From a virus: a stretch of DNA of 64,000 nucleotides. Shown piece after piece: positions 1,681-51,965 of the stretch; position 1 is the first letter of the stretch, and every line of letters starts with the position of its first letter. Under the pieces are notes generated by a model. That model saw nothing but the letters and a program-made list of their open reading frames with translations, was not told the DNA's origin and ran no database searches. The position numbers were made by a program, and so were the translations under genes. Location of the stretch: IMG/VR virus record IMGVR_UViG_3300032030_000058, positions 9,733 through 73,732 of that record; one strand, written 5' to 3'.

Positions 1681-1683
1681 ATT

Positions 1684-2772
1684 TTAGTCCTCCTTTGGAA
1701 CTATCGATACCGCTCCATCTTCTGGTTTTGATTCAATCACTGGTGGAATGATAACCTCTTTAATTTCAGGTTCGGGCCTATCTTTTAAACCAACCAAGAC
1801 CTGTTCTTTCTTTACTCTTTCTACATATTCTTGTTTAGCTTCTTCTTGTTGAGTTAGAGCCTTAAATGTTGAATCTTTTAAGAAACGATAATGAACACTT
1901 GTTCTCATTTCAACATATTCAGCATCAATATCATTCATTTGCACGCCTAATAAATAACCCATGAACGCGGATGATATCATGCTCCATAATCTAGTTAAGA
2001 ATCTAACCCAGGCTGTGGCTGTATCGACATCACCTGCTAAGTCCCTAACTAATGATGCAAATATCATGCCTGTGATAATTGTCATAATTAATTTGCTCAT
2101 TAATCTAAGAGCGAGGAATGAACCCTTCTTTTTGCTTTCGTTTGCTGCTCTTTCAGACACAGTTCTGCTATCGGTAAGAGTAGAAACCGATAAGTAATAT
2201 TCTGGTTCAACAAACGACACTTTTTCACGCTTGTTTTTAATATCAAGAACGCCTTTAATTTGCTCGGATGTTAATGCCTTGTAATAAATACCATTGTAGC
2301 GTTGTGGTTTTATTAATTCTTTGATTTGCGTATCTTCAAGTTTTATCACAGATGTATCATCAATTTGAAGAGCTCTTAATCTTCTCAACTTAATGGTTTC
2401 AATATCTTCTTTTTCAAGAACTTTTCTTATCCATTGTCTAAACGCATTAATACTTTTTTCTTTTACTTGCGCTAAAGAAGTTAAGAATGCACTTCTAGCC
2501 TTTGATATTCTGCTTTTTGCTGACTGTGCATTGCCTGCTTGTCCGATAAACATGGACGAAACCATAGACATAATCACAATCGCAGCAATAATTAATTCAT
2601 TTGTTAGAAATTCTGTGGAACTCCATTGTGTTGGATCGATAATAAATGTAGTGAATGAACATACCGCGATTAATGCTAAGCACATCATCAGCGATAATAC
2701 ACCAAGAATTATCTTTTGATTGGATAATTTTTGTATGGTTTCAGATTCGGTTAATTTTTGCTTTACACTCAT
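1684..2772 (-). CDS. membrane protein with central coiled/charged region
   Basis: 362 aa with N-terminal TM helices, a charged middle and C-terminal TM helices. Confidence 0.55.
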   Translation of the reverse strand: MSVKQKLTESETIQKLSNQKIILGVLSLMMCLALIAVCSFTTFIIDPTQWSSTEFLTNELIIAAIVIMSMVSSMFIGQAGNAQSAKSRISKARSAFLTSLAQVKEKSINAFRQWIRKVLEKEDIETIKLRRLRALQIDDTSVIKLEDTQIKELIKPQRYNGIYYKALTSEQIKGVLDIKNKREKVSFVEPEYYLSVSTLTDSRTVSERAANESKKKGSFLALRLMSKLIMTIITGMIFASLVRDLAGDVDTATAWVRFLTRLWSMISSAFMGYLLGVQMNDIDAEYVEMRTSVHYRFLKDSTFKALTQQEEAKQEYVERVKKEQVLVGLKDRPEPEIKEVIIPPVIESKPEDGAVSIVPKED

Positions 2773-4410: not shown

Positions 4411-4852
4411 CTGTTTTCTTAGAAATCGAACTCATTAATTTTCCAAACTTCTCTAAATTGTCTAAACATGACTGTTTGATCTCTTGCAAAATCGATAATG
4501 CGCCCTTCTTGGTAGCATCACTTAATGCTGTATCATTCACAATATCGATAGTTTGTTTATCACATGCACCGATTAAATCCAAAATCTTTTGAGAAATCTC
4601 ACTTTGAGGAGCCTCTTGACCGGTAATGACCGCAGGATTGCTTTGTTTTTCTTGTTCCACAACATCAACGGAATCTTCTACTGGTTCTTCTTCTGGTTCT
4701 TCAATTTGTGGTTTGAAATAATCGTCTAAATCAGCACTAAAATCCTCTTCATCACATAATTGAGCGTGAAGAATTTTTTTTGCTCTTTCATCACCGTTAC
4801 GTGCTGCTTCACGAAGTTTTTGCATTTGTTCAAAAGGAATATAACGTGCCAT
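4385..4852 (-). CDS. acidic hypothetical protein
   Basis: 155 aa, Glu/Asp-rich. Confidence 0.5.
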   Translation of the reverse strand: MARYIPFEQMQKLREAARNGDERAKKILHAQLCDEEDFSADLDDYFKPQIEEPEEEPVEDSVDVVEQEKQSNPAVITGQEAPQSEISQKILDLIGACDKQTIDIVNDTALSDATKKGALSILQEIKQSCLDNLEKFGKLMSSISKKTVEENEEIQ

Positions 4853-4853
4853 A

Positions 4854-5405
4854 TTAATATTTCAACTCCCATTCATCATCATCTACACCCTCGTAGTATT
4901 CATCGAGAGCATCTTCTAGATTTTCAATATTTAATTGATTTAAAATTCTTTTAGGGACCATGCCTTTTTCGAGAATTAATTGCTTATCTTTTTCTGGAAG
5001 TGGTGCGCTTAATTGATCTTCTAGAAAATCAACCACATCTTGTTTAGAAAGATTAATGTTTCCAGTAAGATTTTCGCCATCTTTATTAATAACTTTAGAA
5101 ACATGTGATGGAACTTCGTCAACATCTTCATCATAACCGAGTTTTTTCCACTCAGGTTGGATGCCCAAAGTTTGTTTTAATTTTTCTTCGTAACTATCAT
5201 CAACACTATGAACATTTGCCATTCCTTGTTTCTTGACAAATATTTTTTCTTCATCGGTTAATTGTTCGCCTCTGCTGTGTTTTCTAAGTAAATCAGCCAT
5301 TTTGGCATTATTATCTTCGAAACTACCGCCACCAGATGCTTTATTTGCTCCAGTAGTAAATCTACCATTTTCGTCGTGATTTGGATTGCCTTTATTTTCT
5401 GTCAT
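4854..5405 (-). CDS. hypothetical protein with N-terminal GNPNHDENGRF motif
   Basis: Start placed at internal ATG 5403-5405 (MTENKGNPNHDENGRFTTG) preceded by AAGGAC; the longer ORF to 5444 overlaps the upstream gene. Confidence 0.5.
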   Translation of the reverse strand: MTENKGNPNHDENGRFTTGANKASGGGSFEDNNAKMADLLRKHSRGEQLTDEEKIFVKKQGMANVHSVDDSYEEKLKQTLGIQPEWKKLGYDEDVDEVPSHVSKVINKDGENLTGNINLSKQDVVDFLEDQLSAPLPEKDKQLILEKGMVPKRILNQLNIENLEDALDEYYEGVDDDEWELKY

Positions 5406-7050: not shown

Positions 7051-7227
7051 TTACATTTTTTCATATTTTGGGCATGGTTTACTTTCGTAGTAAACTTCTT
7101 TTGGTTTTAGATCGAATTTTGAACAATAAGTCGCCAAAAAATTAACTAATCCATATTTACATGTCAAACATGGAATAGTTGATTTATCTGGTAATTGAAT
7201 TGTTAATTCTTCATTTTCATCAATCAT
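7051..7227 (-). CDS. small Cys-rich (zinc-ribbon-like) protein
   Basis: Start at ATG 7225-7227 preceded by AAGGAG; CxxC...CxxxC-like spacing (CLTC...CSK...CPKY). Confidence 0.45.
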   Translation of the reverse strand: MIDENEELTIQLPDKSTIPCLTCKYGLVNFLATYCSKFDLKPKEVYYESKPCPKYEKM

Positions 7228-8833
7228 ATGCTTCTCCTTCCTCATGTCGTGGCTTATAATAATACTCGTTTCCAAGTTTCTTTAAATCATTACCCATAGG
7301 TTTGTTTTTGTCACTTCCTAAGATAACTTCCATATCTAAATAATAGTGACCACCTTTTTTCTCTACTTTGGTAATTTTATATTGATATCCTCTTTGGATA
7401 ATCATTTCATTTTCTCCGTGTCCGCTCGCTGAATATGGCGCAACATACGCCATTTTTACACCCTTCGGACAATAAATATTAAACACAATATTACCTGTGT
7501 GATAACCAGTTCCTTTAGCCGCACCGCAACTGACAAATCCATTATCGGTCCAGGACATACCCACTAATGAATCGCGTTGTTCCTCTGTCATTTCTTCTAA
7601 TGACATTTTTTTACTAGATCCTGGTAAAACAAACATGCTGGTGTAATTGGCAATATATCTATTTAACCAAATATCTTCATCCCAGGTACATTTATCGATA
7701 GCATTAGTTAAATTATTAACACCTTCAGAAAATGTTTGCATTCCTTCATAACCAAAACTATATCCACCCGCATCATGCTTAATACCACGTAACGGTTTAT
7801 TAAAACGACTATATCCAGAACCGGTATAGGCCTTGATAACAGAATGTTCAGCACTACTCATAGAATCCCAATGTTTTTCAGCGTTTGAGCTAAAATGGCT
7901 ATACGCCGAATCAAAGTTCTTCATCCATGTTGCCTTGTCTTTTCTTTGTTTAGAATATGCCGCATTAGGATTTTGGAACTTAGCCTGGAATTCACGTGCT
8001 AAAACAACATTAGGATTATCATCGTTATAATTAACTAACTGTTCATTTAATGAATTACTAAGACTTTCAATGTTTTCTAATTCATCAATATACTTTAAGT
8101 TAATTTGTTCTTTAGCTTTTTCGTATTCTTGGCCTGCTTCTTCAAAAGCATCGAGTTTTTTAAGGAAAATTTTAGCCCTTAATTTTTCTTCGGCATTTGA
8201 ATTTTCATTATCTAAAATACCTTGATACCAGTCGCGCTTTTTCTGAATCGATCCACTTTCGGATAATTCTTTCCAATCGCTAGGATATTTTGTGGAATAA
8301 GCCCAAACACCGGAAAGGCCGTCCATATTATTGACGGCTAATTCCTGAGCAATATCCTTTTCAATATCCTTTTTCTGTTGCTTTAATATTTCAATTTGTT
8401 GTGTAATATGAATCTTCTCATTATCGATTGCGACCGCGTATAATAAAGCACGTAATTCTTCATCGGAAGCATTCTTTAACTTAACCGCATCGAAACCGAG
8501 CTGCTCATTTTTGAGTTCGCCCATCATATCTTCGCGTGACATCGAATCGAACACTTCTTGACGTTCTGGGTTCACTAAGTCTTTATTTGCAGCAACATAA
8601 TCAACAGCCTGTTGTTTTAATGCTTCTTTTTTTCTACCAATTAATGCAGATAATTTGCTTTGAACATCGTTATATTTTTCAGGTATTTCGAGCTTCATCA
8701 CACCCACATCATCGCCAGGAGCACTAGCAAATTGACCACCCTTGCCACCTGGGGCACCGGCTGGTTCATGATTAGGATTTCCTTTATTTCCTTCGTTTTC
8801 AACAACGACTACTTCTTCTTTGTTTTCTTCCAT
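7220..8833 (-). CDS. ADP-ribosyltransferase, Alt-like (C3/VIP2 R-S-E class domain in C-terminal half)
   Basis: GYSRFNKPLR (Y-x-x-x-N-x-x-LR arginine region), MAYVAPYSA, and GENEMIIQRGYQYKI (ExE motif) align with iota/C3-type ART motifs; N-terminal KGNPNHE...GGQF motif. Confidence 0.75.
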   Translation of the reverse strand: MEENKEEVVVVENEGNKGNPNHEPAGAPGGKGGQFASAPGDDVGVMKLEIPEKYNDVQSKLSALIGRKKEALKQQAVDYVAANKDLVNPERQEVFDSMSREDMMGELKNEQLGFDAVKLKNASDEELRALLYAVAIDNEKIHITQQIEILKQQKKDIEKDIAQELAVNNMDGLSGVWAYSTKYPSDWKELSESGSIQKKRDWYQGILDNENSNAEEKLRAKIFLKKLDAFEEAGQEYEKAKEQINLKYIDELENIESLSNSLNEQLVNYNDDNPNVVLAREFQAKFQNPNAAYSKQRKDKATWMKNFDSAYSHFSSNAEKHWDSMSSAEHSVIKAYTGSGYSRFNKPLRGIKHDAGGYSFGYEGMQTFSEGVNNLTNAIDKCTWDEDIWLNRYIANYTSMFVLPGSSKKMSLEEMTEEQRDSLVGMSWTDNGFVSCGAAKGTGYHTGNIVFNIYCPKGVKMAYVAPYSASGHGENEMIIQRGYQYKITKVEKKGGHYYLDMEVILGSDKNKPMGNDLKKLGNEYYYKPRHEEGEAYD

Positions 8834-15104: not shown

Positions 15105-15283
15105 GTTCGAGAGGTTGCAGCCTCTTAGTTATAAAGGAGGATGTTCATTATATGTCCGAAATGAAAACCTACAGCTTTAGTATACAGCATCGATTCGTTA
15201 CCGTGCAAGAAAATTCCATCACCAGACAAGTTGGATTGCCCATAGAGCTTTTGAAAAAAATCGCACTATACTAAAAATAATTG

Positions 15284-15312
15284 TTGACAACATATATTAA
15301 TGGATATATAAT
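15284..15312 (+). promoter_or_regulatory. early sigma-A-type promoter P1 (TTGACA-17-TATAAT)
   Basis: -35 15284-15289, -10 15307-15312, AT-rich UP element aaaataattg. Confidence 0.7.
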
Positions 15313-15343
15313 TTAGGTAGTTAAAAACAAAGGAGCAAAAAAT

Positions 15344-15727
15344 ATGACACTAAATGAACTCTTAAAAAAACTTAGCACCATTAAAAAATATCGCTGGTTC
15401 CATGTGGTTTACACTAGCACTATCAATGGTTACAAAAAAACCACTACAAGCATTGTTAGGTTTGCTGACTATAAAAAGGCTGATGGCACCATGAACGAGC
15501 CTAAAAAGACCAATGTAAGCGAGTATATCATGCATTGTGAAAATACCGGCAATACCAATTTACAAGTATTCGTTACCAAATGCAAAAACCATAAGCCACA
15601 TAGTGTTTATGAGTATATGGGCAAAGAGATTAGTAAAGAGGAATATTATGAGGGTTCTCACAAAAAGCCATCTTCACCATCTCAATGTTTCTATCTCACC
15701 ATTGACAACATTGTAGCAATTTACTAA
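15344..15727 (+). CDS. early hypothetical protein
   Basis: Promoter 15284-15312, AAGGAG RBS, 127 aa. Confidence 0.6.
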   Translation: MTLNELLKKLSTIKKYRWFHVVYTSTINGYKKTTTSIVRFADYKKADGTMNEPKKTNVSEYIMHCENTGNTNLQVFVTKCKNHKPHSVYEYMGKEISKEEYYEGSHKKPSSPSQCFYLTIDNIVAIY

Positions 15728-15740
15728 GGGGGTTATAAAA

Positions 15741-15914
15741 ATGTTCAAAGTTGGAGATACCATTAAAATTATCTACATGGAAGGAGAGCCACAATATAGT
15801 GGCAAAATAGGCACCATTACTCACATTGACGATATTGGTCAATTACATGGGACTTGGGGTGGTTGTGCACTAATTCCAAATGTGGACGAGTTCCAAAAAA
15901 TTGAGAGCCGATAA
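15741..15914 (+). CDS. small early protein (57 aa)
   Basis: AAGGGGG RBS 6 nt upstream of ATG; followed by terminator 15904-15930. Confidence 0.5.
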   Translation: MFKVGDTIKIIYMEGEPQYSGKIGTITHIDDIGQLHGTWGGCALIPNVDEFQKIESR

Positions 15915-15930
15915 CATCGGTTCTTTTTTT
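15904..15930 (+). terminator. intrinsic terminator
   Basis: CCGAT-aac-ATCGG hairpin plus T8. Confidence 0.6.
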
Positions 15931-15978
15931 TAGCATCAATCGACCGTGCAAGAAGGAGATGGCGGCGGATGTCGATGG

Positions 15979-15996
15979 TTCCTAAAATCTTAGGAA
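15979..15996. promoter_or_regulatory. palindromic operator TTCCTAAAATCTTAGGAA upstream of P2
   Basis: Near-perfect 18 bp inverted repeat ~20 bp upstream of the -35. Confidence 0.5.
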
Positions 15997-16016
15997 AAAT
16001 TTTCTATAAATAATTG

Positions 16017-16045
16017 TTGACAATATATATACAATAATATATAAT
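16017..16045 (+). promoter_or_regulatory. early promoter P2 (TTGACA-17-TATAAT)
   Basis: -35 16017-16022, -10 16040-16045. Confidence 0.7.
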
Positions 16046-16072
16046 GGTAGTGTAGATAAGGAGATAAAAACT

Positions 16073-16198
16073 ATGTTCGCTAAAACCTATGTAATTATGC
16101 CATTGGAGTGGGATTATGATAATGACCACCATAATATGATAAGATACCTATCTAATCAAGGTATCATTGTTCCTAGTGATATTGTTCGCTTGGATTAA
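16073..16198 (+). CDS. small early ORF (42 aa), possibly the 5' part of a frameshifted gene
   Basis: Promoter 16017-16045, AAGGAG RBS; a further 41-codon ORF follows in the +1 frame (16213-16338) without an RBS before the terminator. Confidence 0.35.
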   Translation: MFAKTYVIMPLEWDYDNDHHNMIRYLSNQGIIVPSDIVRLD

Positions 16199-16212
16199 TT
16201 GTGTGGCTCTAT

Positions 16213-16338
16213 GGAGTGTTCAAAGGGCTATGCGGTTGGCACCATTACAAAACTTAAAAAGGAATATCCATATGTCAAGTTTGGACTATTCGAGGGAGCA
16301 ACTTGGGGTTCACTGACCATTGTTCAAGAGTTCTAATT
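16213..16338 (+). pseudogene. possible downstream fragment of a frameshifted early gene
   Basis: ORF MECSKGYAVG... in a different frame from 16073-16198, no SD, same transcription unit. Confidence 0.25.
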
Positions 16339-16339
16339 G

Positions 16340-16367
16340 AAGTATCCTGATGCGGGATACTTTTTTT
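16340..16367 (+). terminator. intrinsic terminator
   Basis: GTATCC-tgatgc-GGGATAC plus T7. Confidence 0.65.
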
Positions 16368-16452
16368 ATGCGATGCTGGACCGTGCTAAAAAATCCGATG
16401 GCGGATCCAGGATGAAGCTCACCATCAATGTTTGTTAACTTATAATTTTGTG

Positions 16453-16481
16453 TTGACAATATATATAAAATGATATATACT
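16453..16481 (+). promoter_or_regulatory. early promoter P3 (TTGACA-17-TATACT)
   Basis: -35 16453-16458, -10 16476-16481. Confidence 0.65.
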
Positions 16482-16505
16482 ATAATTAGAAAGAAGGAAC
16501 AAATC

Positions 16506-16931
16506 ATGAGTGAAAAACAAAAGCAAGAAGCCATTAAAAGAATGAGACTTCTACAAATTATGAATAGCGTCATTACCGACTTTAAAAATAATGGTCGTAT
16601 TTATTATAGTGAAAGGCAGAATTCAATGTTTCCAGCCACACTGTATTGGTTAGACAATAAACCTGAATGGGTTGCAATGGTCAAGGACTTTGAAAAAAGA
16701 AATCATGCCCTTGTCTATCATGCTCAATTAACTCACACACAAGTGGGAGACTTGCTATCGTTATTATATGTTTCTAATGACGAGTCAAGCTGGGAAGAGG
16801 ACCGCGAATGGATAGTCAATGAAGATGGCTTGATGTATTCAATGGTCATTAATCTTGACGACGACACATTCAGCGACATGGGGACCATTCAAGTTCGACC
16901 AGCGATGGGAGGTGTAGTAAGAACGGCGTAA
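16506..16931 (+). CDS. early hypothetical protein
   Basis: Start at ATG 16506 preceded by GAAGGAAC RBS; promoter 16453-16481. Confidence 0.6.
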   Translation: MSEKQKQEAIKRMRLLQIMNSVITDFKNNGRIYYSERQNSMFPATLYWLDNKPEWVAMVKDFEKRNHALVYHAQLTHTQVGDLLSLLYVSNDESSWEEDREWIVNEDGLMYSMVINLDDDTFSDMGTIQVRPAMGGVVRTA

Positions 16932-17042
16932 CAGCCGCTCTTTTTTTTAGCTTCAATTACCGTGCTAATACAGTGGATCCAGATTCAGATGCGGATCGTC
17001 TTCTGGCGTTCGAATCTTTTTAAAAAAATTTAATTTTAGGTA

Positions 17043-17071
17043 TTGACAATATATATAAAATAATATATACT
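17043..17071 (+). promoter_or_regulatory. early promoter P4 (drives ncRNA candidate)
   Basis: -35 17043-17048, -10 TATACT 17066-17071; 27/29 identical to P3. Confidence 0.65.
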
Positions 17072-17077
17072 ATATAT

Positions 17078-17289
17078 GTAAGATGAATAAACAAGTGTTG
17101 GGAAGATGATGTTCTCTTACAGCGAATAACCAAAGACTGCTATAGTGTCATAATAGGCGTAAGGTGGACGAAACCCTGGTTGGTTGGGCCGACGACTCGT
17201 ATGGTGTTTGCTACGTCACAACGTTAAATAGAACGTAGAACATAACTTAATAGTTTGGGAGAAGGTGGTTCGAAACACCTTCTTTTTTT
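17078..17289 (+). ncRNA. candidate ~210 nt non-coding RNA (promoter to terminator with no ORF and no RBS)
   Basis: Canonical early promoter 17043-17071 followed by no SD or ORF longer than 8 codons, internal hairpins (GTAAGA/TCTTAC, CTACGT/ACGTAG), intrinsic terminator 17259-17289. Confidence 0.45.
17259..17289 (+). terminator. intrinsic terminator ending the ncRNA candidate
   Basis: GAAGGTG-gttcgaaa-CACCTTC plus T7. Confidence 0.65.
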
Positions 17290-17393
17290 GCACCTGATAA
17301 CGCAACTGGATCTAAATCGCCGCATCAGATGAACCGTGCTAAACAGCATCATCTGGAATTCGGATGGAGCTGGGAAATTCTTCAAAAATAATG

Positions 17394-17422
17394 CTTGACG
17401 ATATATATACAATAATATATAA
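17394..17422 (+). promoter_or_regulatory. early promoter P5 (TTGACG-17-TATAAT)
   Basis: -35 17394-17399, -10 17417-17422. Confidence 0.65.
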
Positions 17423-17451
17423 TATAAGTAGTTAATAGGAGGAATACTAAT

Positions 17452-17868
17452 ATGACCATTAGACAAACATTATCAAACTACGTTATAAGTGAAATGACCA
17501 ACGAGGAACTATTCACTGAACTATCAAATTCTTTACCATTCAAGAGCAAAAGAGAGCATACTAAATGGTTATCGTTAAAGGGCACACAACAATGGTTGAC
17601 CATGACCGAAAAAGTTCTTAAACGAGCCAATACGCAAGTTTACCATGTCAAATTGGAACGTGGTTCACGTATTGAAATCAATGGTACAGGTTTCTATTCA
17701 TTTGAGGACTATTACACAAGTATCAAACTTGAACCAAATGAGAGCCATCGTTACATCAAGGAACAAACCATTGACCATATTCGTCAACAAATTGCTACTA
17801 GTATCCTTAAAAATGTCAAGAGATGGAAAGATATTGGTATTGATATGGCTGACCTAAGAGTGTTGTAA
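17452..17868 (+). CDS. early hypothetical protein
   Basis: Promoter 17394-17422, AGGAGG RBS, 138 aa. Confidence 0.6.
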   Translation: MTIRQTLSNYVISEMTNEELFTELSNSLPFKSKREHTKWLSLKGTQQWLTMTEKVLKRANTQVYHVKLERGSRIEINGTGFYSFEDYYTSIKLEPNESHRYIKEQTIDHIRQQIATSILKNVKRWKDIGIDMADLRVL

Positions 17869-17883
17869 ATCAAACCATAAACA

Positions 17884-17920
17884 TAAAAAAGAGAAGGGTT
17901 ATTCGCCCTTCTTTTCTTTT
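17884..17920. terminator. bidirectional terminator
   Basis: AGAAGGG-ttattcg-CCCTTCT flanked by an A-run and a T-run; the same hairpin family recurs at 60397-60430. Confidence 0.6.
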
Positions 17921-18141
17921 TCCATCGCAGCTTTGGCCAGATCCTTGATGTATTGAGCCGTGCTGTATTTGGATCTCAGGAAGTCATAGATCATCATCTG
18001 TTCTGGATCATCTTTCTTAAACATGATGGTCATTGAACAGTAGTTACTCTTGTTATACTTCTTGATGTAATCTCTCTTCCTCTTGTAATATTCTTCTGTT
18101 GGCATAAATTCTCCTCCTTCTCCATCAGCATCTGGATCCAC
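17899..18141 (-). CDS. hypothetical protein (minus-strand gene inside the early cluster)
   Basis: Own minus-strand promoter 18161-18189 (TTGACC-17-TACAAT), GGAGGAG RBS, bidirectional terminator 17884-17920. Confidence 0.55.
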   Translation of the reverse strand: MDPDADGEGGEFMPTEEYYKRKRDYIKKYNKSNYCSMTIMFKKDDPEQMMIYDFLRSKYSTAQYIKDLAKAAMEKEKKGE

Positions 18142-18160
18142 TATCCGTGCTGTGTATATA

Positions 18161-18189
18161 ATTGTATATTAGGATTCCAGATTGGTCAA
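18161..18189 (-). promoter_or_regulatory. minus-strand promoter for 17899-18141 (TTGACC-17-TACAAT)
   Basis: -35 18189-18184, -10 18166-18161 read on the minus strand. Confidence 0.55.
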
Positions 18190-18196
18190 GAAAAAA

Positions 18197-18225
18197 TTTA
18201 CAAGTATATATAAAATGGTTATAAT
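18197..18225 (+). promoter_or_regulatory. promoter P6 (TTTACA-17-TATAAT), drives sRNA candidate
   Basis: -35 18197-18202, -10 18220-18225. Confidence 0.6.
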
Positions 18226-18231
18226 AATGAT

Positions 18232-18338
18232 GAAGGTGAATTAATTAAGCCCCCAATTAAATAACGCAATTCATTAAACTTTTTCATTTCAAACTAAAAA
18301 TCCATCACCTTCAGCAGTCCCTCGTGGACTGTTTTTTT
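18232..18338 (+). ncRNA. candidate ~105 nt small RNA
   Basis: Promoter TTTACA-17-TATAAT at 18197-18225, no ORF longer than 5 codons, closing helix GAAGGTGA/TCACCTTC, terminator 18313-18338. Confidence 0.4.
18313..18338 (+). terminator. intrinsic terminator
   Basis: CAGTCC-ctcgt-GGACTG plus T8. Confidence 0.65.
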
Positions 18339-18413
18339 TGATTCAGCTAACCGTGCTATACGGCGACGCCAGATGAATCAAAATTGAGCTGGAAAAAAAT
18401 TTAATTTACCCCC

Positions 18414-18442
18414 TTGCAAATATATATACTTTGATATATAAT
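18414..18442 (+). promoter_or_regulatory. early promoter P7 (TTGCAA-17-TATAAT)
   Basis: -35 18414-18419, -10 18437-18442. Confidence 0.65.
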
Positions 18443-18470
18443 ATAGATAGTTAAAAGGGAGATAAAAAAC

Positions 18471-18761
18471 ATGACAACTACTTCAAAACAAACTAAGGCT
18501 TGGAAAGAACTTTTCTCAGCCATATTCGAAGAAAATGGATACTTCGAAAACTTACGTCAATTCGCAAAGGACCATGGTTATAGCAATCAAGACATGACTG
18601 AAATGCTTTATGAAAGCTACATGCACAATTGCCCTGAAGGTATGGGACCTTATTATTTCATGGACAGTATGGAAGAGCATTACGAGGACATGAAAGACAG
18701 CGTGGAAAATATTTACGATATGGTGGACTGGCTATGGGACCATCAAGCGTGGAAGGAGTAA
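18471..18761 (+). CDS. early acidic hypothetical protein
   Basis: Promoter 18414-18442, AAGGGAG RBS. Confidence 0.6.
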   Translation: MTTTSKQTKAWKELFSAIFEENGYFENLRQFAKDHGYSNQDMTEMLYESYMHNCPEGMGPYYFMDSMEEHYEDMKDSVENIYDMVDWLWDHQAWKE

Positions 18762-18765
18762 AACA

Positions 18766-19059
18766 ATGGAAAACAAATACTATGAGCTTGGTTGGAGGCT
18801 TAATTCAACACAAAGGAAAGCCCTAAAAGACCTTGGCTACCATGTGTATGCAACTCGTTCTTGGGACGAAGGTTGTGGCTCTACATTGGAACATCGTGTC
18901 CTTGTTAACCACGAAACAGACGTCATTACAAACTTCCCAGCATTGGACGACAACAATCCTGAAGACATGGCTAACGACTTCTACGAGCGCATGGAAGAAT
19001 TCAATGCTACCAGCGACCTAGAAATCACCCCTGAAATGAGAACCATCTTGGAAATGTAA
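18766..19059 (+). CDS. early acidic hypothetical protein
   Basis: Coupled 4 nt after upstream gene, GGAGTAA RBS. Confidence 0.55.
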   Translation: MENKYYELGWRLNSTQRKALKDLGYHVYATRSWDEGCGSTLEHRVLVNHETDVITNFPALDDNNPEDMANDFYERMEEFNATSDLEITPEMRTILEM

Positions 19060-19065
19060 AGGAGG

Positions 19066-19098
19066 GAGAGGCTGCCATCAGCAGCTTCTTTTTTTTAT
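19066..19098 (+). terminator. intrinsic terminator
   Basis: GCTGC-catca-GCAGC plus T9. Confidence 0.65.
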
Positions 19099-19248
19099 GC
19101 CTCCTTCACTGCACGGTTAGAAGCTGGATTCGCCTGAATTCTGGAGATTCATCTGGAAGCTCACCTGGGGATTCATCTGGGCGATTACCGTGCTCGATCG
19201 ATGTCCACAGAGCTTCTACCAGAATCCAAAAAATAATTAAAATAATGG

Positions 19249-19277
19249 TTGCAAGTATATATACATTAATATATAAT
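19249..19277 (+). promoter_or_regulatory. early promoter P8 (TTGCAA-17-TATAAT)
   Basis: -35 19249-19254, -10 19272-19277. Confidence 0.65.
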
Positions 19278-19306
19278 ATAGGTAGTTAATAGGAGGAACA
19301 TATCCC

Positions 19307-20038
19307 ATGGAAAAAACAACAAACATATTGCTTGGTCTAGCAATTAAACACAATGGTAATTGGAGTAGCATTTACCATGACTTACAACAAAAGGACTATG
19401 AAGGTGCAGAGGCACTCGCAGAGGCTTATACAGGCTCTTTTATCACTATCCTTGACGAAGAATATCCTGACTACTTAAAACAAGCCCACAAGCCACCATT
19501 TGTGCTATTTTATAATGGCGACATTTCTTTATTAAAAAAGGAACACACACGAGTATGCGTATCAACAAGTAGAGCAACTGACGAAGACTCACTTTCTTTC
19601 TTGCACTCTTTAATTAACAATGACTACAACGACATTGACTATGTTATAAGCGAAACCACACACAACATTGAAATAGACAGGAAGAAACACCACGCCATTT
19701 GCGTTGCAGGTTGTGGTCTTGAACTCGTCAATTGCACCAACTACGACTTAATAATCAGTGAATATCCTAGTGGCACACCAAAAGCCTCGGAAGGTATGCT
19801 TGGAGCATATCGTATTATGGCAGGTATTTCTTCAAAAATAATGGTCGGTAAAGTTAAAAGACTAAGCGGAACGAATGCCCTTATCTCCTTCGGTTTATAT
19901 CAAAACAAGGACATATTAGTTATGCCTGTTAAACCAAAGGAAAACATTGAGGAAGACCTTGGCAATAATAAACTTATCTACGACGGAGCAATACCACTAG
20001 TAGACAAGGAACAGTTAGCGTTCTATCTAGGTCATTAA
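19307..20038 (+). CDS. DprA/Smf-like (Rossmann/SLOG-type) protein, divergent
   Basis: HHAICVAGCGLEL...LIISEYPSGTP...GAYRIMAGISSKIMVGKVKRLSGTNALIS matches the DprA core (TIAVLGSGLD...LLISEYPPGTP...RNRIIAGLS...SGSLITA); the canonical SGLARGID motif is replaced by SETTHNIEID. Confidence 0.55.
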   Translation: MEKTTNILLGLAIKHNGNWSSIYHDLQQKDYEGAEALAEAYTGSFITILDEEYPDYLKQAHKPPFVLFYNGDISLLKKEHTRVCVSTSRATDEDSLSFLHSLINNDYNDIDYVISETTHNIEIDRKKHHAICVAGCGLELVNCTNYDLIISEYPSGTPKASEGMLGAYRIMAGISSKIMVGKVKRLSGTNALISFGLYQNKDILVMPVKPKENIEEDLGNNKLIYDGAIPLVDKEQLAFYLGH

Positions 20039-20042
20039 AAAA

Positions 20043-20070
20043 GTGTCGGAAATTTATCCGACATTTTTTT
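20043..20070 (+). terminator. intrinsic terminator
   Basis: GTCGGAAATTTATCCGAC plus T7. Confidence 0.65.
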
Positions 20071-20114
20071 CTGGGGCGGTCACCGTGCTATGCGGCAGAT
20101 GATCCGGATCCAGC

Positions 20115-20132
20115 TTCCTAAAATTTTAGGAA
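20115..20132. promoter_or_regulatory. palindromic operator TTCCTAAAATTTTAGGAA upstream of P9
   Basis: Perfect 18 bp palindrome 24 bp upstream of the -35. Confidence 0.5.
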
Positions 20133-20156
20133 ATTAAATTCACCTAAAAATAATTG

Positions 20157-20185
20157 TTGACATCAATTTGTATATAATGTAATAT
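20157..20185 (+). promoter_or_regulatory. early promoter P9 (TTGACA-17-TAATAT)
   Basis: -35 20157-20162, -10 20180-20185. Confidence 0.65.
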
Positions 20186-20212
20186 ATATAACGTAAACAG
20201 GAGGTATACCAA

Positions 20213-20431
20213 ATGAAAACAACCATCTCATTCTACAACTCAACTACTGCCTTATGGGTAAACTTTGACGACAAATTTATGGCTCTCAAAGACCAGCACT
20301 CAAAAGGTGAAATGAGTGAAGTTTACGATTTCGGTGTTGGCTTAATCGAAGTTAAGGCAACTGATGGTGAAATCGAAGCTACTCGTAAAGTGCTTGAAAC
20401 ACAAGGGTTCACATTCATTTATATCGAATAA
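20213..20431 (+). CDS. early hypothetical protein
   Basis: Promoter 20157-20185, AGGAGG RBS, 72 aa. Confidence 0.6.
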   Translation: MKTTISFYNSTTALWVNFDDKFMALKDQHSKGEMSEVYDFGVGLIEVKATDGEIEATRKVLETQGFTFIYIE

Positions 20432-20523
20432 GAAGGATGTCCATCAGGGCATTCTTTTTTTATGTCTCAATCACCGTGCTATATTGCCACGATCCGAACA
20501 TCTAAAAAACTATAAATAATTAT

Positions 20524-20552
20524 TGACTTCTATATATAAAAGGATATATATT
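20524..20552 (+). promoter_or_regulatory. early promoter P10 (TTGACT-17-TATATT)
   Basis: -35 20524-20529, -10 20547-20552; first of a tandem pair. Confidence 0.6.
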
Positions 20553-20624
20553 ATAGACAGGTAGTTGAAGAGAGCACCTCAAAAAATCAACTACAAAAAA
20601 AATTAAAAAAAATAAAAAAACCTA

Positions 20625-20653
20625 TTGACACATTTTAAAAAATAATGTAATAT
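20625..20653 (+). promoter_or_regulatory. early promoter P11 (TTGACA-17-TAATAT)
   Basis: -35 20625-20630, -10 20648-20653. Confidence 0.65.
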
Positions 20654-20741
20654 ATAGGTGTAAGGTAAAGAACGAGGAACGTTCACGAGGGCCTTACGAA
20701 CAAACTTAAAACGTGGAAGAACCACTATAGGAGAATTAAAA

Positions 20742-21023
20742 ATGTTTGTAAAAATTACTCGAATTAACAACCAAAATCACGAAAAAGAATTAGTAGTCAA
20801 CACTGACGAAATCGTCTTTCTAAGCGAATGCGAAGACCACATCAACTATGACAAGCCTATCGCATACGAAGAAACCACTGACGAAGACACAGGTATCATT
20901 ACCAAAGTCCCAAGTGAGTGGGAAATCGAAAAACGTTATGTTATCGGTTTCAAAAACGGAAAACACCCACAAATCGTAGACAAAACCAATTACGAAAAAT
21001 TAGCCGAAATCTTACTCAAATAA
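20742..21023 (+). CDS. early hypothetical protein
   Basis: Tandem promoters 20524-20552 and 20625-20653, ~80 nt structured leader, TAGGAGAA RBS. Confidence 0.6.
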   Translation: MFVKITRINNQNHEKELVVNTDEIVFLSECEDHINYDKPIAYEETTDEDTGIITKVPSEWEIEKRYVIGFKNGKHPQIVDKTNYEKLAEILLK

Positions 21024-21046
21024 GAAAGTAGGGTAAAATAGCCACT

Positions 21047-21082
21047 GGAAGAGAGCCCACCTCGAACTCTCTTCTTTTTTTG
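21047..21082 (+). terminator. intrinsic terminator
   Basis: GAAGAGAG-cccacctcgaa-CTCTCTTC plus T7. Confidence 0.65.
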
Positions 21083-21145
21083 TCTTCGCGACGGCGGATG
21101 GAAGGCGGATCAACGTGGGCATCCTATGGCACGGTCATATGATTC

Positions 21146-21163
21146 TTCCTAAATTTTTAGGAA
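21146..21163. promoter_or_regulatory. palindromic operator TTCCTAAATTTTTAGGAA upstream of P12
   Basis: Third copy of the same palindrome, 15 bp upstream of the -35. Confidence 0.5.
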
Positions 21164-21178
21164 ACTTGCAAATTTGTG

Positions 21179-21207
21179 TTGACAATATATATCAAATAAT
21201 ATACAAT
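21179..21207 (+). promoter_or_regulatory. early promoter P12 (TTGACA-17-TACAAT)
   Basis: -35 21179-21184, -10 21202-21207. Confidence 0.65.
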
Positions 21208-21231
21208 GGTAGCATAAGGAGGGCATATCCC

Positions 21232-21537
21232 ATGAAAAGCAAATACGTAGAGTATAGAGATTTCTATATTACATCATTCGTTGACTACGATAAGGAATTG
21301 TTCGTTATGGTCAACATCAGTGGCGACACACTAGTGGAAAACTTCACTAGCAACTTCTTCTCTAAAGAAGACTTAGTTATTGACTATTATAAGTTAATCT
21401 CCAAATGTGCCACAGGAGGGGACGAAGACGATATTATTCCATACACACGCAAGTATATGGCGCATATCGTGAGAGTTTCACAAGAGGAACTTAATATGGA
21501 CTATATTAATTTCTCTCTAAAGGGGGTCCAATTATGA
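21232..21537 (+). CDS. early hypothetical protein
   Basis: Start at ATG 21232 after TAAGGAGGG; promoter 21179-21207. Confidence 0.6.
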   Translation: MKSKYVEYRDFYITSFVDYDKELFVMVNISGDTLVENFTSNFFSKEDLVIDYYKLISKCATGGDEDDIIPYTRKYMAHIVRVSQEELNMDYINFSLKGVQL

Positions 21538-21755
21538 GACGCTACTACATAATTACCGACCTTGTCCACAGTCAAGACTATCTTACGTGGGCGTATGACC
21601 ATAGTGACATCCTTGGTGCAGCAATATGCTTTGCTGAAAAACAAGGCGTCACCATCAATGACCTGCGTATGTATGCCTGCTCCACCAAAAAAGAGTGGGA
21701 CGCATACGGAACAGCTCACTTCTCTCGTATCAAAGCGTGGCAATGCACCAAATAA
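21534..21755 (+). CDS. early hypothetical protein
   Basis: ATGA overlap with upstream gene; followed by two terminators. Confidence 0.55.
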   Translation: MRRYYIITDLVHSQDYLTWAYDHSDILGAAICFAEKQGVTINDLRMYACSTKKEWDAYGTAHFSRIKAWQCTK

Positions 21756-21989
21756 GGCATCAAACGGCTCGATTCAGCCGTTTTTTGTTGTTTTCCGAGT
21801 AATTCCTCGTTTTCATACACAAACACATCTTAAACGGCGGATTCGTAACATCCGCTTTTTTGATGCTTCAGGGACGTTCACCGTGCTAACCAGATGAATC
21901 GAGTTAGTACCAGAATCATCCCACATCTAAGATGTGAATTACTGTCCATCAAAAAATTAATTTTTTTTGCAAATTATTCATTTTTATAT

Positions 21990-22185
21990 TAACTATAAAA
22001 TAGAATAATTATGCAAAGGGACCATTTTGGTGAATCGAGTTAGCGTTTTGCTATTATTATCTTACATATATATATACATACACATATTGGGAATTATAGG
22101 AAAATTCTAACTCAACTAATCAAATTTAACATTAGTAGATAGACTACTAAAAAAATCAACGTTCTATAAATAATTATTGACTTGG
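21990..22185 (+). repeat. ~190 bp direct repeat, copy A
   Basis: ~80% identical over ~110 bp to 28250-28445 (tttggtgaatcgagttagcg...atatatatacatacacatat...) and shares the identical ctataaataattattgac promoter-like end. Confidence 0.6.
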
Positions 22186-22347
22186 CACTTTTTGGCGTTT
22201 TTTGAGCTTTTTGCTTTCCTTTCTTCTTCTAAGAATTCTTCTTCTTCTCCTTGCGATGCTTCTGGATCAGGACCTAGCACGGATAGCTTCATGTGCATGT
22301 CCAGGACCGGGTTAGCATCAGGGTGAAAATTTGTTACAAAAATATAT

Positions 22348-22375
22348 TGACAACCATTTTCAAATAATATATACT
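22348..22375 (+). promoter_or_regulatory. promoter P13 (TTGACA-16-TATACT), drives sRNA candidate
   Basis: -35 22348-22353, -10 22370-22375. Confidence 0.6.
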
Positions 22376-22381
22376 GTAGTT

Positions 22382-22487
22382 GCAATGATGGAGATATGTA
22401 TTCTCCTATAACTTAAAAACCCATAGTCATGTTAATTCCTTTCATTGCACTAATCTGTCAGTTTACATAGCCTGGCAGATTTTTTTA
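22382..22487 (+). ncRNA. candidate ~105 nt small RNA
   Basis: Promoter TTGACA-16-TATACT at 22348-22375, only 8- and 12-codon ORFs, internal hairpin GGAGA/TCTCC, terminator ATCTGTCAG/CTGGCAGAT plus T7 at 22453-22487. Confidence 0.4.
22453..22487 (+). terminator. intrinsic terminator ending the sRNA candidate
   Basis: ATCTGTCAG-tttacatagc-CTGGCAGAT plus T7. Confidence 0.6.
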
Positions 22488-22599
22488 TGCCCAGCTCAGG
22501 ATCTGGACAGGATCTGAATCCGATTTCGCATATTAGCACGGTAGGTTAATTATAGAATCGATGCCGCTTCAGAAAATGAAAAAATACTATAAAAATATA

Positions 22600-22628
22600 T
22601 TGACATATACATGTATATAATGTAATAT
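22600..22628 (+). promoter_or_regulatory. early promoter P14 (TTGACA-17-TAATAT)
   Basis: -35 22600-22605, -10 22623-22628. Confidence 0.65.
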
Positions 22629-22653
22629 ATAATTGTCAATAGGAGGTCACAAT

Positions 22654-23268
22654 ATGGCTATAAAAATCTCAACTACAAACTCAAAACTAGGGTTCATGAT
22701 TCCTAGTATATCACTACCACCGCAACACTCTTGTCGTCCTGACGCGCCTTGTGCGAAGGGTTGCTATGGTAAAAAGGGCAATTTCTTATTTAGTAACGTT
22801 CAACAGTCTCATATGGTCAACTTTGAAGAATATCAAAAAAATCCTAACGGGTACTTCAAACAAATTATTGAATACTTAAATTGCGGACTCATATCACATA
22901 AATTCTTTCGTTGGCATACTGTCGGCGACATCGTAGACTACAATTATTTTCTCGGAGTCGTTAGTGTGGCGCGTAAATGTAAAGACACTAAGTTCTTACT
23001 ATTCACGAAGAAGTTCGACATCATCAACGACTACGTGGGCGCCGGTAACACTATTCCTAGAAATTTATCAATTGTGTTTTCCGCGTGGCATAAGGGTTTT
23101 AAAGTCGACAATCCTTATGACTTCCCTGTCGCGTATGTGTTCTTTAAGAAGACAGAACTCAATCCTGACATCCCAGCTATGGCTATCCCTTGTTCTGGTC
23201 ACTGTCCATCTTGTTTAGCCTGTTGGAGTCTTAAAAAAGGTCAATCAGTGTTCTTCAATCAACACTAA
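22654..23268 (+). CDS. Cys-rich early protein (N-terminal CxxxxxCxxxC and C-terminal CSGHCPSCLAC clusters)
   Basis: Start at ATG 22654 after AGGAGG; promoter 22600-22628; 204 aa. Confidence 0.55.
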   Translation: MAIKISTTNSKLGFMIPSISLPPQHSCRPDAPCAKGCYGKKGNFLFSNVQQSHMVNFEEYQKNPNGYFKQIIEYLNCGLISHKFFRWHTVGDIVDYNYFLGVVSVARKCKDTKFLLFTKKFDIINDYVGAGNTIPRNLSIVFSAWHKGFKVDNPYDFPVAYVFFKKTELNPDIPAMAIPCSGHCPSCLACWSLKKGQSVFFNQH

Positions 23269-23328
23269 TTAAACCGCCGAAGTAGGGACGCGGTATATAA
23301 GACAGCCTTGGGATAGCGGACCAACGCT

Positions 23329-23359
23329 AGAAGGGAATCGATCCCTTCTTTTTTTTATG
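23329..23359 (+). terminator. intrinsic terminator
   Basis: GAAGGGA-atcga-TCCCTTC plus T8. Confidence 0.65.
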
Positions 23360-23496
23360 CGGATTTATCTAGCACGGTAATGGATCCACGGCGGCGATTC
23401 TCTGGATCCAGACAGCTTCAGATCAAGATGAATAACCGTGCCGGAAGCTGTACGATCAGAATCCATCCTGGATCAGAAAAAAACTGTAAATTTATA

Positions 23497-23526
23497 TTGA
23501 CATATATATATCCAATAATATACAAT
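23497..23526 (+). promoter_or_regulatory. early promoter P15 (TTGACA-18-TACAAT)
   Basis: -35 23497-23502, -10 23521-23526. Confidence 0.6.
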
Positions 23527-23552
23527 GAGAGTGTCAATAGGAGGATATACAA

Positions 23553-23924
23553 ATGACAAACTACAACACTTTAACACCTTACAAACATCATCAAATCGAA
23601 GACTGGGGCGGCGTTATCAGTGACGACTTCAAATCATTCGCTCGCAAGTGGCAAAACTTCTTAAAACGCATGTGTGCAAATAACGGTTGGGAGCTATGCA
23701 ACTTCAATCGCGGACACTACTACTGTTCCTGGTTCATCAAAAACGGTGACAAATACGTTTACTGCTCATTCGGAGACGTCAGGCACTTCTCCAGAGACTG
23801 GTATAAACTCATTCTCCATCGCGTCGCAAAAAATGAACGCGACTATACCGGTGGAAGTAACTGGTACACCGAACTCGAAAATCTCGAAGGAGCAATTACC
23901 AGACGGTTCCAGACTGGATATTAG
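23553..23924 (+). CDS. early hypothetical protein (Cys/Trp-rich)
   Basis: Promoter 23497-23526, AGGAGG RBS, bidirectional terminator 23934-23968. Confidence 0.6.
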   Translation: MTNYNTLTPYKHHQIEDWGGVISDDFKSFARKWQNFLKRMCANNGWELCNFNRGHYYCSWFIKNGDKYVYCSFGDVRHFSRDWYKLILHRVAKNERDYTGGSNWYTELENLEGAITRRFQTGY

Positions 23925-23933
23925 TTCAAAAAA

Positions 23934-23968
23934 TAGAAAAGAGCTGATCATCTCAGCCCTTTTTTATT
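23934..23968. terminator. bidirectional terminator between convergent genes
   Basis: GCTGA-tcatc-TCAGC with an A-run upstream and a T-run downstream. Confidence 0.55.
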
Positions 23969-24761
23969 TCTTAGAATTAATAGCACGGTTACGCCAGCTC
24001 TGCATCAACTTCCTGGTTCTTCTCATATCCGTCTTCATCTGCAATGGTAAACTCGCATCACCAAAACTCTTCTTCACCACCTGCATCAATTTTAAACGGT
24101 CCCTGTAGAAGCGATACTGTTGAACCTCATACGAAATATATTCCTGAGCCGAAACACGCCTTAAACGGCCGATTTCAGCGAAAGAAACAGGAATCAATCT
24201 GTGGCGACAGTTCTTACGTGTGCATAGGTATGGCGGCTGAAGCATCACTTCGTCCACACTTAGTAACCCGGCGTTAAATATATATGCCTTCTCTTCATCT
24301 GAATACTCAGCGTTCTTTTTATAATAAATTCTGCCCTGATACGCAGCGTGGTCTTTAGCTGGATCTGTGAACTCCGTGCAATAGTAGAACTTTGAATCCC
24401 CCTGAAGAACATCCACGAGCTCTTCATGCTTCTTACGGTACTCGATATTATCCACAACATCGTTCTTGATCTTCTCCAGCATCGGGGTATCATCTCTAAG
24501 CACGGCATATATCGATGCGGCGCGATCATCTGCATCAACTTTCCGGGCTGCACCAGCTACGGTATGTTTGTAGAAATTCATGGCAAATAACCAGAGCGAG
24601 TGCCGCTCATTATCGTTCAGATGCTGAACATTCTGGATGATCTTCTTCACCTGACGCATCACTGATCTTTTATCAGCACGGTTAAGTACGCTAGATGTGA
24701 TCACCGCCACGATCTTTAGCTCTGCATTATATATTAAATTCTTATAATACCCTGTGTTCAT
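23964..24761 (-). CDS. hypothetical protein, possible MuF-like minor head protein (follows the portal)
   Basis: 265 aa, GC-richer codon usage shared with the portal gene; the position after the portal parallels SPP1 gp6-gp7. Confidence 0.35.
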   Translation of the reverse strand: MNTGYYKNLIYNAELKIVAVITSSVLNRADKRSVMRQVKKIIQNVQHLNDNERHSLWLFAMNFYKHTVAGAARKVDADDRAASIYAVLRDDTPMLEKIKNDVVDNIEYRKKHEELVDVLQGDSKFYYCTEFTDPAKDHAAYQGRIYYKKNAEYSDEEKAYIFNAGLLSVDEVMLQPPYLCTRKNCRHRLIPVSFAEIGRLRRVSAQEYISYEVQQYRFYRDRLKLMQVVKKSFGDASLPLQMKTDMRRTRKLMQSWRNRAINSKK

Positions 24762-24799
24762 GGTTTTATTATATAAAAAAGAGCTCCTAAATGGAACTC

Positions 24800-51623: not shown

Positions 51624-51699
51624 TGGCAACGATGCCTGGGCTCGAACCAGGGAATATTAGAGTCAAAGTCTAATGCCTTACCAACTTGGCTACATCGTT
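51624..51699 (-). tRNA. tRNA-Gln (anticodon UUG)
   Basis: 76 nt; acceptor AACGATG/CATCGTT, anticodon stem TTAGA/TCTAA with loop CTTTGAC, T-arm CCTGG-TTCGAGC-CCAGG, encoded CCA. Confidence 0.85.
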
Positions 51700-51786
51700 A
51701 TAATGATGGCGAAGTTACCCAATTACCGACTTTCATAGAACTAATTAGCGTTCTCCAGTTTTCATCGCTTCGCCTGGGATAAATTT

Positions 51787-51873
51787 TGGCGGAAAGCCAG
51801 GGACTCGAACCCTGAATGCCTTTCGGCACAACGGTTTTCAAGACCGCCTGAATACCAATTATCACAGCCCTCC
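51787..51873 (-). tRNA. tRNA-Ser (anticodon UGA), class II
   Basis: 87 nt; anticodon loop CTTGAAA, long variable arm GCCGAAAGGC, T-arm CAGGG-TTCGAGT-CCCTG, encoded CCA. Confidence 0.8.
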
Positions 51874-51874
51874 G

Positions 51875-51962: not shown

Positions 51963-51965
51963 CGT

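Follow-up and report, generated by a model that had tools for sequence, protein, structure and literature searches.

Results and Discussion

The locus and the early block

The unit described here occupies positions 17043-17289, plus strand, of the window, the whole stretch of 64,000 nucleotides that was analyzed. The window comes from an uncultured tailed phage that encodes a Terminase_3 large subunit (35066-36610), a primase-polymerase/D5 helicase and a major capsid protein with 28% identity to the capsid of Listeria phage P40, and a comparison at the DNA level identified no cultured phage close to it. Only three tRNAs were found in the window by ARAGORN, all within 51.6-52.0 kb: tRNA-Gln(UUG), tRNA-Ser(UGA) and tRNA-Ser(GCU) (51624-51963, minus strand). 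Also encoded are an RNA repair enzyme that fuses a polynucleotide kinase-phosphatase to an RNA ligase (28986-31196, minus strand) and, among the late genes, an ADP-ribosyltransferase (7220-8833, minus strand). The combination of the RNA repair fusion, the ADP-ribosyltransferase and the tRNAs hints at a conflict with host anticodon nucleases.

The early block extends over 15.2-24.0 kb on the plus strand and is built of short cassettes, each of which opens with a near-consensus sigma-A promoter (TTGACAATATATAT..ATATATAnTATA), continues with one or two small genes and closes with an intrinsic terminator. Cassettes are separated by a short repeated motif. The 9-mer ACCGTGCWA occurs 13 times in the window against 0.49 expected occurrences, and 12 of the 13 copies lie inside the early block (15200-23989), typically 10-50 nt past each terminator. 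Examples are found at 15943, 16380, 16959, 17333, 18350, 20082, 20473 and 21880, with minus-strand copies at 22534, 23370 and 23981. The motif is also present 3′ of terminators in the related phages L018, L019, L023, L046 and L050, which are described below. The block forms a mosaic in which near-identical promoters, terminators and this motif delimit the individual units. At the locus of interest, the copies ACCGTGCTA at 16959-16967 (plus strand) and 17333-17341 (plus strand) form the left and right boundaries of the cassette, and the next promoter begins at 17395. The 9-mer may serve the shuffling of cassettes, as a boundary or recombination site, or it may be the binding site of a regulator.

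Two other features of the region were observed. About ten CCGTGC hexamers, most of them on the minus strand, are clustered at 24374-26625, in and around a gene of 590 amino acids (24800-26572) that has no Pfam match. The only reverse-strand gene within the early block (17899-18141, minus strand; 80 amino acids) has its own divergent promoter (18189-18161) and is conserved at the DNA level in L018, L042, L046, L047, L048 and L050. Its product may be a small DNA-binding regulator.

Promoter, predicted transcript and coding capacity

The cassette starts with an early sigma-A-type promoter (17043-17071, plus strand) composed of a -35 element TTGACA (17043-17048), a 17-nt spacer and a -10 element TATACT (17066-17071). 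It scores 11 out of 12 in a promoter scan and differs from the promoter at 16453 at a single position in 32 bases. The initial annotation had described it as nearly identical to another early promoter, its P3, at 27 of 29 positions. The near-identity holds, although the correct count across the -35 to -10 region is 28 of 29. The same type of promoter precedes the homologous units in the relatives. Transcription likely starts at G17078, the seventh base past the -10 element, and the geometry of promoter and terminator predicts a transcript of about 205-212 nt, from about 17078 to about 17288.

The same annotation had reported no open reading frame longer than 8 codons and no Shine-Dalgarno sequence. 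The first statement is accurate for ATG starts, the longest of which opens an 8-codon frame in the loop of the 5′ hairpin H1, but it overlooked a GTG frame of 24 codons and a TTG frame of 15 codons. The second statement is correct, as none of the ATG, GTG or TTG frames is preceded by a properly spaced Shine-Dalgarno sequence. Such short frames could be taken for a micropeptide gene or for what is left of a decayed protein-coding cassette. However, no open reading frame is common in position, frame or sequence to the seven members of the family described in the next section, and the combination of a Shine-Dalgarno sequence and an ATG is absent from every one of them. Moreover, a neutral remnant would not retain 70% identity in its core, or compensatory base pairs, at such divergence. 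A very small or decayed protein-coding gene is therefore a very unlikely reading of the locus.

Homologous units in related phages

Relatives of the phage were retrieved by means of the capsid gene because the neighboring early proteins are too variable; the latter proved to be poor anchors, while the capsid gene worked. Twelve distinct relatives were obtained (57-84% capsid identity), with up to 10 kb of early block from each. A cassette with the same promoter, a non-coding body and a terminator was found with statistical support in five other metagenomic phages. The homologues in L018 (IMG/VR 3300028591_000238) and L023 were recognized by reading the capsid-retrieved relatives, and those in L047, L046 and L050 were found by nhmmer. 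A profile made from the window, L047, L018 and L023 recovers L046 (E = 1.5e-6) and L050 (E = 3.5e-6). The same four-member profile matches L019 at the terminator only, for which reason we count five secure homologues and one probable one. In what follows, the seven members are the window, L018, L023, L047, L046, L050 and L019. The membership of L019/L051 was assigned by inspection only. The unit was found in 7 of the 12 relatives. In the other five (L042, L044, L048, L057 and L058), a search within 10 kb of the capsid gene did not detect it, and it is therefore probably accessory.

Three members are longer (285-330 nt), owing to insertions that lie, for the most part, between hairpin H1 and the core. 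The flanking genes vary between phages; in L046, for example, the homologue of the gene upstream of the unit in the window (16506-16931) does not adjoin the RNA unit. Among the early-gene clusters of the 12 phages, none co-occurs with the RNA, and no partner protein was found. Since the flanks differ and no partner gene accompanies it, the unit is an independent, autonomous cassette.

The window includes other promoter-terminator units devoid of open reading frames (18197-18333 and 22347-22490). No homologues of these two were detectable by nhmmer in the same loci of the relatives and, therefore, conservation of the body of the unit at 17043-17289 is not trivial. This comparison also bears on the possibility that the locus is a DNA-level module, such as an empty shuffling cassette or a binding or origin region, of which any transcript is a by-product. 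The construction of the early block from cassettes bounded by ACCGTGCWA, promoter and terminator and the existence of the two other empty units are compatible with a module of this kind. Nonetheless, the body is conserved across phages and accumulates compensatory changes in strand-specific hairpins, a type of conservation that the other empty units lack, and the failure to detect the unit in 5 of the 12 relatives argues against an essential origin. We consider a DNA-level module unlikely.

Several additional small units were noticed. The 5′ end of the 18197-18333 unit, UGAAGGUGA, is able to pair with UCACCUUCA just before its terminator, and the unit faces away from the sole reverse-strand gene of the block. 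The promoter at 20523 is followed by no open reading frame before the next promoter at 20625, and this arrangement is not conserved in the relatives examined. Small promoter-terminator units without open reading frames that include CACCUCCU, the anti-Shine-Dalgarno sequence of 16S rRNA, are present in L018 (430-260, minus strand) and L044 (within 1392-1889, minus strand). These may be small RNAs that mask ribosome-binding sites; nhmmer linked them neither to each other nor to the window.

Searches outside the group of relatives were negative. A blastn comparison of three members with 50,697 phage records (INPHARED) returned matches to AT-rich promoter segments only. The exact core pattern identified only the known relative in IMG/VR, and its 17 matches in GTDB genomes all fell in unrelated coding sequences or in the promoter of a tRNA, as expected by chance. 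The predicted RNA belongs to a family without match in Rfam or in the records of cultured phages, carried by uncultured phages that form a clade and have contigs of about 80 kb.

Secondary structure of the predicted RNA

The first element of the RNA is hairpin H1 (17078-17120, plus strand), formed by GUAAGA (17078-17083) and UCUUAC (17115-17120), which begins at the inferred position +1. This stem, already noticed in the initial annotation, is conserved in all homologues: a GUAAGG/CCUUAC-type pairing is present in the seven members at the same distance from the -10 element, with one compensatory change, G-C to A-U, in the window. H1 folds at -8.2 kcal/mol.

H1 is followed by a core with the layout of a three-way junction (17127-17186, plus strand) that corresponds to the GC-rich core of the earlier description and is the best-conserved sequence block of the unit. 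Helix P1 (17127-17133 with 17180-17186; UAACCAA/UUGGUUG) would close P2 and P3 into the junction. In L023 and L050, it is kept through a change of A-U to G-C, and it is partly broken or weakened in L047 and L019. P2 is a short hairpin (17135-17137 with 17147-17149) found in all members as GAC/GUC, ACC/GGU, ACCU/AGGU or ACCAUU/AAUGGU. P3a/P3 (17156-17160 with 17168-17170 and 17174-17175) exposes the 7-nt loop AAGGUGG (17161-17167). P3 is present in all seven members as CGU/RCG with a loop of 6-8 nt, AAGGUG or a near variant, and a GG/CC helix (P3a) is the element on which P3 usually stacks.

Two further hairpins lie between the core and the terminator. P4 (17202-17221, plus strand) pairs UGGUG (17202-17206) with CACAA (17217-17221), with one G-A mismatch in the window. 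Its stems covary among members (UGGUG/CACCA, CAGU/ACUG, CAGUG/CACUG, UAGUG/CACUA and AGUG/CACU). P5 (17211-17238, plus strand) pairs CUACGU (17211-17216) with ACGUAG (17233-17238). This stem, which had also been proposed from the window, finds confirmation in L047, where it is kept as UUACUG/CAGUAA through three double changes, and it is restricted to the subgroup formed by the window and L047. Because P4 and P5 interleave, they would be either alternative structures or the two parts of a pseudoknot.

H1, P2, P3, P4 and the terminator were verified pair by pair in every member, and the formal covariation count was limited to four sequences (window, L047, L018 and L023). In the alignment of these four fitted to the covariance model, 83.8% of the cells pair, compared with 23-47% when the partners are slid by 1-3 columns, and 7 of 20 pairs changed on both sides, a number reached by 4 of 500 shuffles; these values come from an alignment that was fitted to the proposed structure and leans towards it. 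RNAalifold re-predicted P1, P2 and P3 from the same alignment, although the consensus energy was weak (-2.75 kcal/mol). Neither the whole transcript (-51.7 kcal/mol, z = -0.53) nor the junction (z = +0.86) folds better than shuffled sequences. Covariance models built on a 104-nt core (R1 and R2) recover only the window, L047, L018 and L023; the long members L046, L050 and L019 are missed, with scores within noise. The description of the RNA as structured in the initial annotation is thus modestly supported, by short covarying helices but not by a folding energy in excess of that of shuffles. In our reading, the RNA would consist of several short, evolutionarily maintained helices with conserved loops rather than a compact, highly stable fold.

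The terminator and the possibility of a cis-acting leader

The unit ends at an intrinsic terminator (17259-17289, plus strand) with a stem formed by 17259-17267 and 17276-17284, the 8-nt loop GUUCGAAA (17268-17275) and a U7 tract that extends to 17289. A simple terminator scan of the window left it off its list, and the earlier assessment of a strong terminator is nonetheless supported by its folding energy (-14.4 kcal/mol, z = -3.3; none of 200 shuffles folds as well). The terminator stems covary in all seven members. The loop is GUUGCAAA in 5 of the 7 members, GUUCGAAA in the window and unrelated in L050, and both GUUCGAAA and GUUGCAAA include a 6-nt palindrome (UUGCAA/UUCGAA). The GUUGCAAA loop is not exclusive to the RNA, since the terminator that follows the capsid gene of L044 (11288-11325, plus strand) has the same 8-nt loop; an identical sequence is found in L045 (~2797-2834).

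A three-way junction followed by an intrinsic terminator is also the layout of a cis-acting leader, in which the junction would sense a ligand or a protein and the terminator would control read-through into the gene at 17452-17868, as in a riboswitch-like attenuator. AAGGUG-like strings recur in H1, the P3 loop and the 5′ arm of the terminator, which could suggest alternative pairings. However, a separate full-strength promoter at 17395, located 105 nt beyond the terminator, serves the next gene, and the genes located downstream vary between phages. Neither H1 nor the P3 loop follows the changes in the terminator stems (GAGGCG, GAGGUCG, AGAGUG), conservation of the junction strand J2/3 does not extend to L046, L050 or L019, and there is no riboswitch match in Rfam. 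A terminator/antiterminator switch based on the AAGGUG/CACCUU strings was discarded for lack of covariation, and the AGAAGG...CCUUCU arrangement is simply how terminators usually look in this phage. With an independent promoter for the next open reading frame, downstream genes that are not conserved and a terminator that does not covary with the upstream AAGGUG copies, we regard a riboswitch, an attenuator or another cis-acting leader as improbable.

The unit at 17043-17289 has the sequence features expected of a stand-alone early non-coding RNA: its own promoter, its own terminator, no coding capacity and conservation with compensatory changes. The initial proposal of a stand-alone non-coding unit of about 210 nt with an early promoter and a terminator is upheld by the existence of homologous cassettes, the lack of a conserved open reading frame and the compensatory changes. 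Judging from these comparisons, the locus is most likely a gene for a stand-alone early non-coding RNA.

Comparison with known RNA classes

The window and the six homologous loci were searched with Rfam 15. At the gathering thresholds, the only matches were two tRNAs elsewhere in the window, and at E <= 10, only inconsistent sub-threshold matches were obtained. ARAGORN detected no tRNA or tmRNA at the locus. The initial annotation had pointed out that the terminator loop resembles a T-loop but that the region is not a tRNA, and both ARAGORN and Rfam are in agreement with this; the likeness is not conserved. A tRNA-like element was discarded because a T-loop (GUUCRANYC closed by a 5-bp stem) is not conserved, and what is found in the window is the 8-nt loop GUUCGAAA on a terminator stem.

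Background for another candidate is provided by the packaging RNA (pRNA) of phi29 (RF00044), an RNA of about 120-175 nt with multiple helices, expressed from an early promoter, whose sequence diverges fast while the helices are kept. The RNA described here resembles it in these aspects: early promoter, multiple helices and fast divergence of the sequence with retention of helices. They differ in that there is no covariance-model match to RF00044, the present phage has a classical TerL and the unit was not detected in many relatives. The last two observations make a phi29-type or other essential RNA unlikely. The 6S RNA was also discarded, given that there is no match to RF00013 and the RNA is a local series of hairpins (H1, junction, P4 and terminator), unlike the end-to-end rod of 6S RNA, an irregular long hairpin that has a bubble at its center and its 5′ and 3′ ends paired.

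Other candidates were considered and dropped. For a type III antitoxin (ToxI-like) or pseudo-ToxI, the criterion was a tandem array of repeats of approximately 34-36 nt, and Tandem Repeats Finder reported only AT-rich promoter spacers. As for a mimic of CRISPR repeats, the match of the window to CRISPR-DR64 (17.1 bits) is antisense to the RNA, and that of L023 (20.1 bits) is in the sense orientation and falls elsewhere along the RNA. Mimicry of the 3′ end of 16S rRNA (h45 and the anti-Shine-Dalgarno sequence), noticed by eye, was not significant in Smith-Waterman comparisons against shuffles, and the matched positions were inconsistent. A CsrA-type sponge was set aside since the GGA counts are, by our own estimate, near those expected by chance.

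The possibility that the locus specifies an essential structural or mimic RNA (a phi29-type pRNA, a 6S-like RNA polymerase decoy, a tRNA-like decoy or a solitary CRISPR-repeat mimic) draws on the early-region position, on complementary AACCAA/UUGGUU blocks that recall the loop pairing of pRNA, on the T-loop-like loop of the window and on the weak CRISPR-DR64 matches (17.1 and 20.1 bits). Against it stand the absence of Rfam matches to pRNA, 6S RNA or tRNA and of an ARAGORN tRNA at the locus, the classical Terminase_3 large subunit of the phage, the 5 of 12 relatives in which the unit was not detected, the lack of conservation of the T-loop-like sequence, and the fact that the DR64 matches differ in strand and RNA region between the two phages and fall far below the gathering score of 40. 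An RNA of these types is extremely unlikely.

To our knowledge, almost no non-coding RNA of a virulent phage has a known function, and these RNAs are poorly cataloged, above all for phages that infect Gram-positive bacteria or bacteria of the gut or rumen. In the T4-type PeSL (promoter-early stem-loop) arrangement, mobile regulatory boundaries surround protein genes. The gene described here is similar in that it behaves as a shufflable unit of an early mosaic; in contrast, its cargo is itself a conserved non-coding RNA. Phage early non-coding RNAs are already known. The Staphylococcus Kayvirus vB_SauM-515A1 produces lncRNA2 from a 525-bp non-coding region with a typical early promoter, at 8-9% of the counts per million, and it is, like the present one, a stand-alone non-coding unit driven by an early promoter, in that case in a virulent phage of a Gram-positive host (PMC7698491). 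It is longer than the RNA described here (about 210 nt, as predicted from the sequence), and the Kayvirus non-coding regions adjoin tRNA genes, unlike this unit. In Pseudomonas phages, small non-coding RNA candidates have been mapped by ONT-cappable-seq or Grad-seq (PMC10914365). As in our case, they are short transcripts without open reading frames located between a start and a terminator and are proposed to be regulators, but most of them arise by premature termination in 5′ UTRs or by processing of 3′ UTRs (PMC10914365). The RNA considered here would instead be produced by an independent cassette that has its own promoter and is conserved despite differing flanks.

What is new is a separate RNA family that has no sequence or model match in the databases searched. 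Its ends are predicted, its secondary structure can be tested and its conserved loops are clear; the gene lies in an accessory early block of host-takeover or anti-defence type, and the family would provide a covariance model for annotating, in this phage clade, a region that gene callers leave blank.

Possible function

The initial annotation had considered a regulatory RNA, a decoy or an anti-defence RNA plausible. The gene is a reasonable candidate for an RNA-based host-takeover or anti-defence function. Since it has a promoter identical to the ones that drive the early genes, the RNA would be transcribed at a high level by the host sigma-A RNA polymerase right after infection. RNA decay that depends on the 5′ end is well established in Firmicutes, where RNase J1 and RppH carry it out. 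With the 5′ end in a hairpin from the first nucleotide and the 3′ end in the terminator hairpin, the RNA is expected to be long-lived: H1 at +1 and the terminator would confer resistance to 5′- and 3′-end-dependent decay, and the RNA would accumulate. It would then act in trans, as an accessory host-takeover factor and not as an essential structural RNA. The exposed conserved loops of P3 and P4, and possibly the palindromic one of the terminator, could bind and titrate a protein or an RNA. We infer this gene and mechanism as the best overall explanation of the locus, and consider it probable as a whole, a degree of confidence that applies mainly to the identity of the gene; titration by a decoy is, by itself, a tentative proposal that we find possible but not favored by the odds.

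The proposal takes into account a feature shared with early mRNAs. The GUAAGG/CCUUAC hairpin at +1 is also the first element in the leader of an early gene that is widely conserved (20744-21024, promoter at 20625). The leader of this gene (20655-20745) has GUAAGGU...ACCUUAC at +1, and the same hairpin is found in leaders of L018 (~4190-4110, minus strand), L042 (within 4683-4978, minus strand) and L057 (within 4991-5283, minus strand). Besides, the P3 loop of the RNA repeats the GUAAGGUG string in single-stranded form. The +1 hairpin and GUAAGGUG in common suggest that the RNA and the early leaders are seen by the same factor, which the RNA could titrate as a decoy or sponge. The main alternative that fits this general reading is regulation of a host mRNA by base pairing. 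Duplex predictions against the translation-initiation regions of the phage ranked no gene cluster consistently high, and neither a conserved phage mRNA target nor a ligand emerged.

A more specific version, which we put forward as a rather doubtful one, is that the RNA is a counter-defence or host-takeover effector, a stable decoy. Its conserved, exposed AAGGUG-type P3 loop and its GUAAGG/CCUUAC 5′ hairpin would mimic the leaders at the 5′ end of early mRNAs of the phage itself. The decoy would titrate a host factor (an RNA-binding protein, a ribonuclease or an immune sensor) by which these mRNAs would otherwise be attacked, and a dimer could form through the palindromic UUGCAA/UUCGAA terminator loop. 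Should the RNA be a decoy or regulator, an RNA-based tool would be added to the early functions of phages.

Other elements were observed in the leaders of early genes. In the leader of 20744-21024, another small hairpin, whose loop is AAGAA, directly precedes the Shine-Dalgarno sequence. In the early block of L019 (minus strand), nearly every mRNA leader has a hairpin of 3-4 bp with a GAAGAAC-type loop just 5′ of the Shine-Dalgarno sequence, for example, at about 7400, 6740, 5750, 5090, 4570, 2270 and 1130. The stems of these hairpins covary (GGUG/CACC, GGCG/CGCC, AGGG/CCCU and GUGG/CCAC), which suggests that they are a common site of post-transcriptional control.
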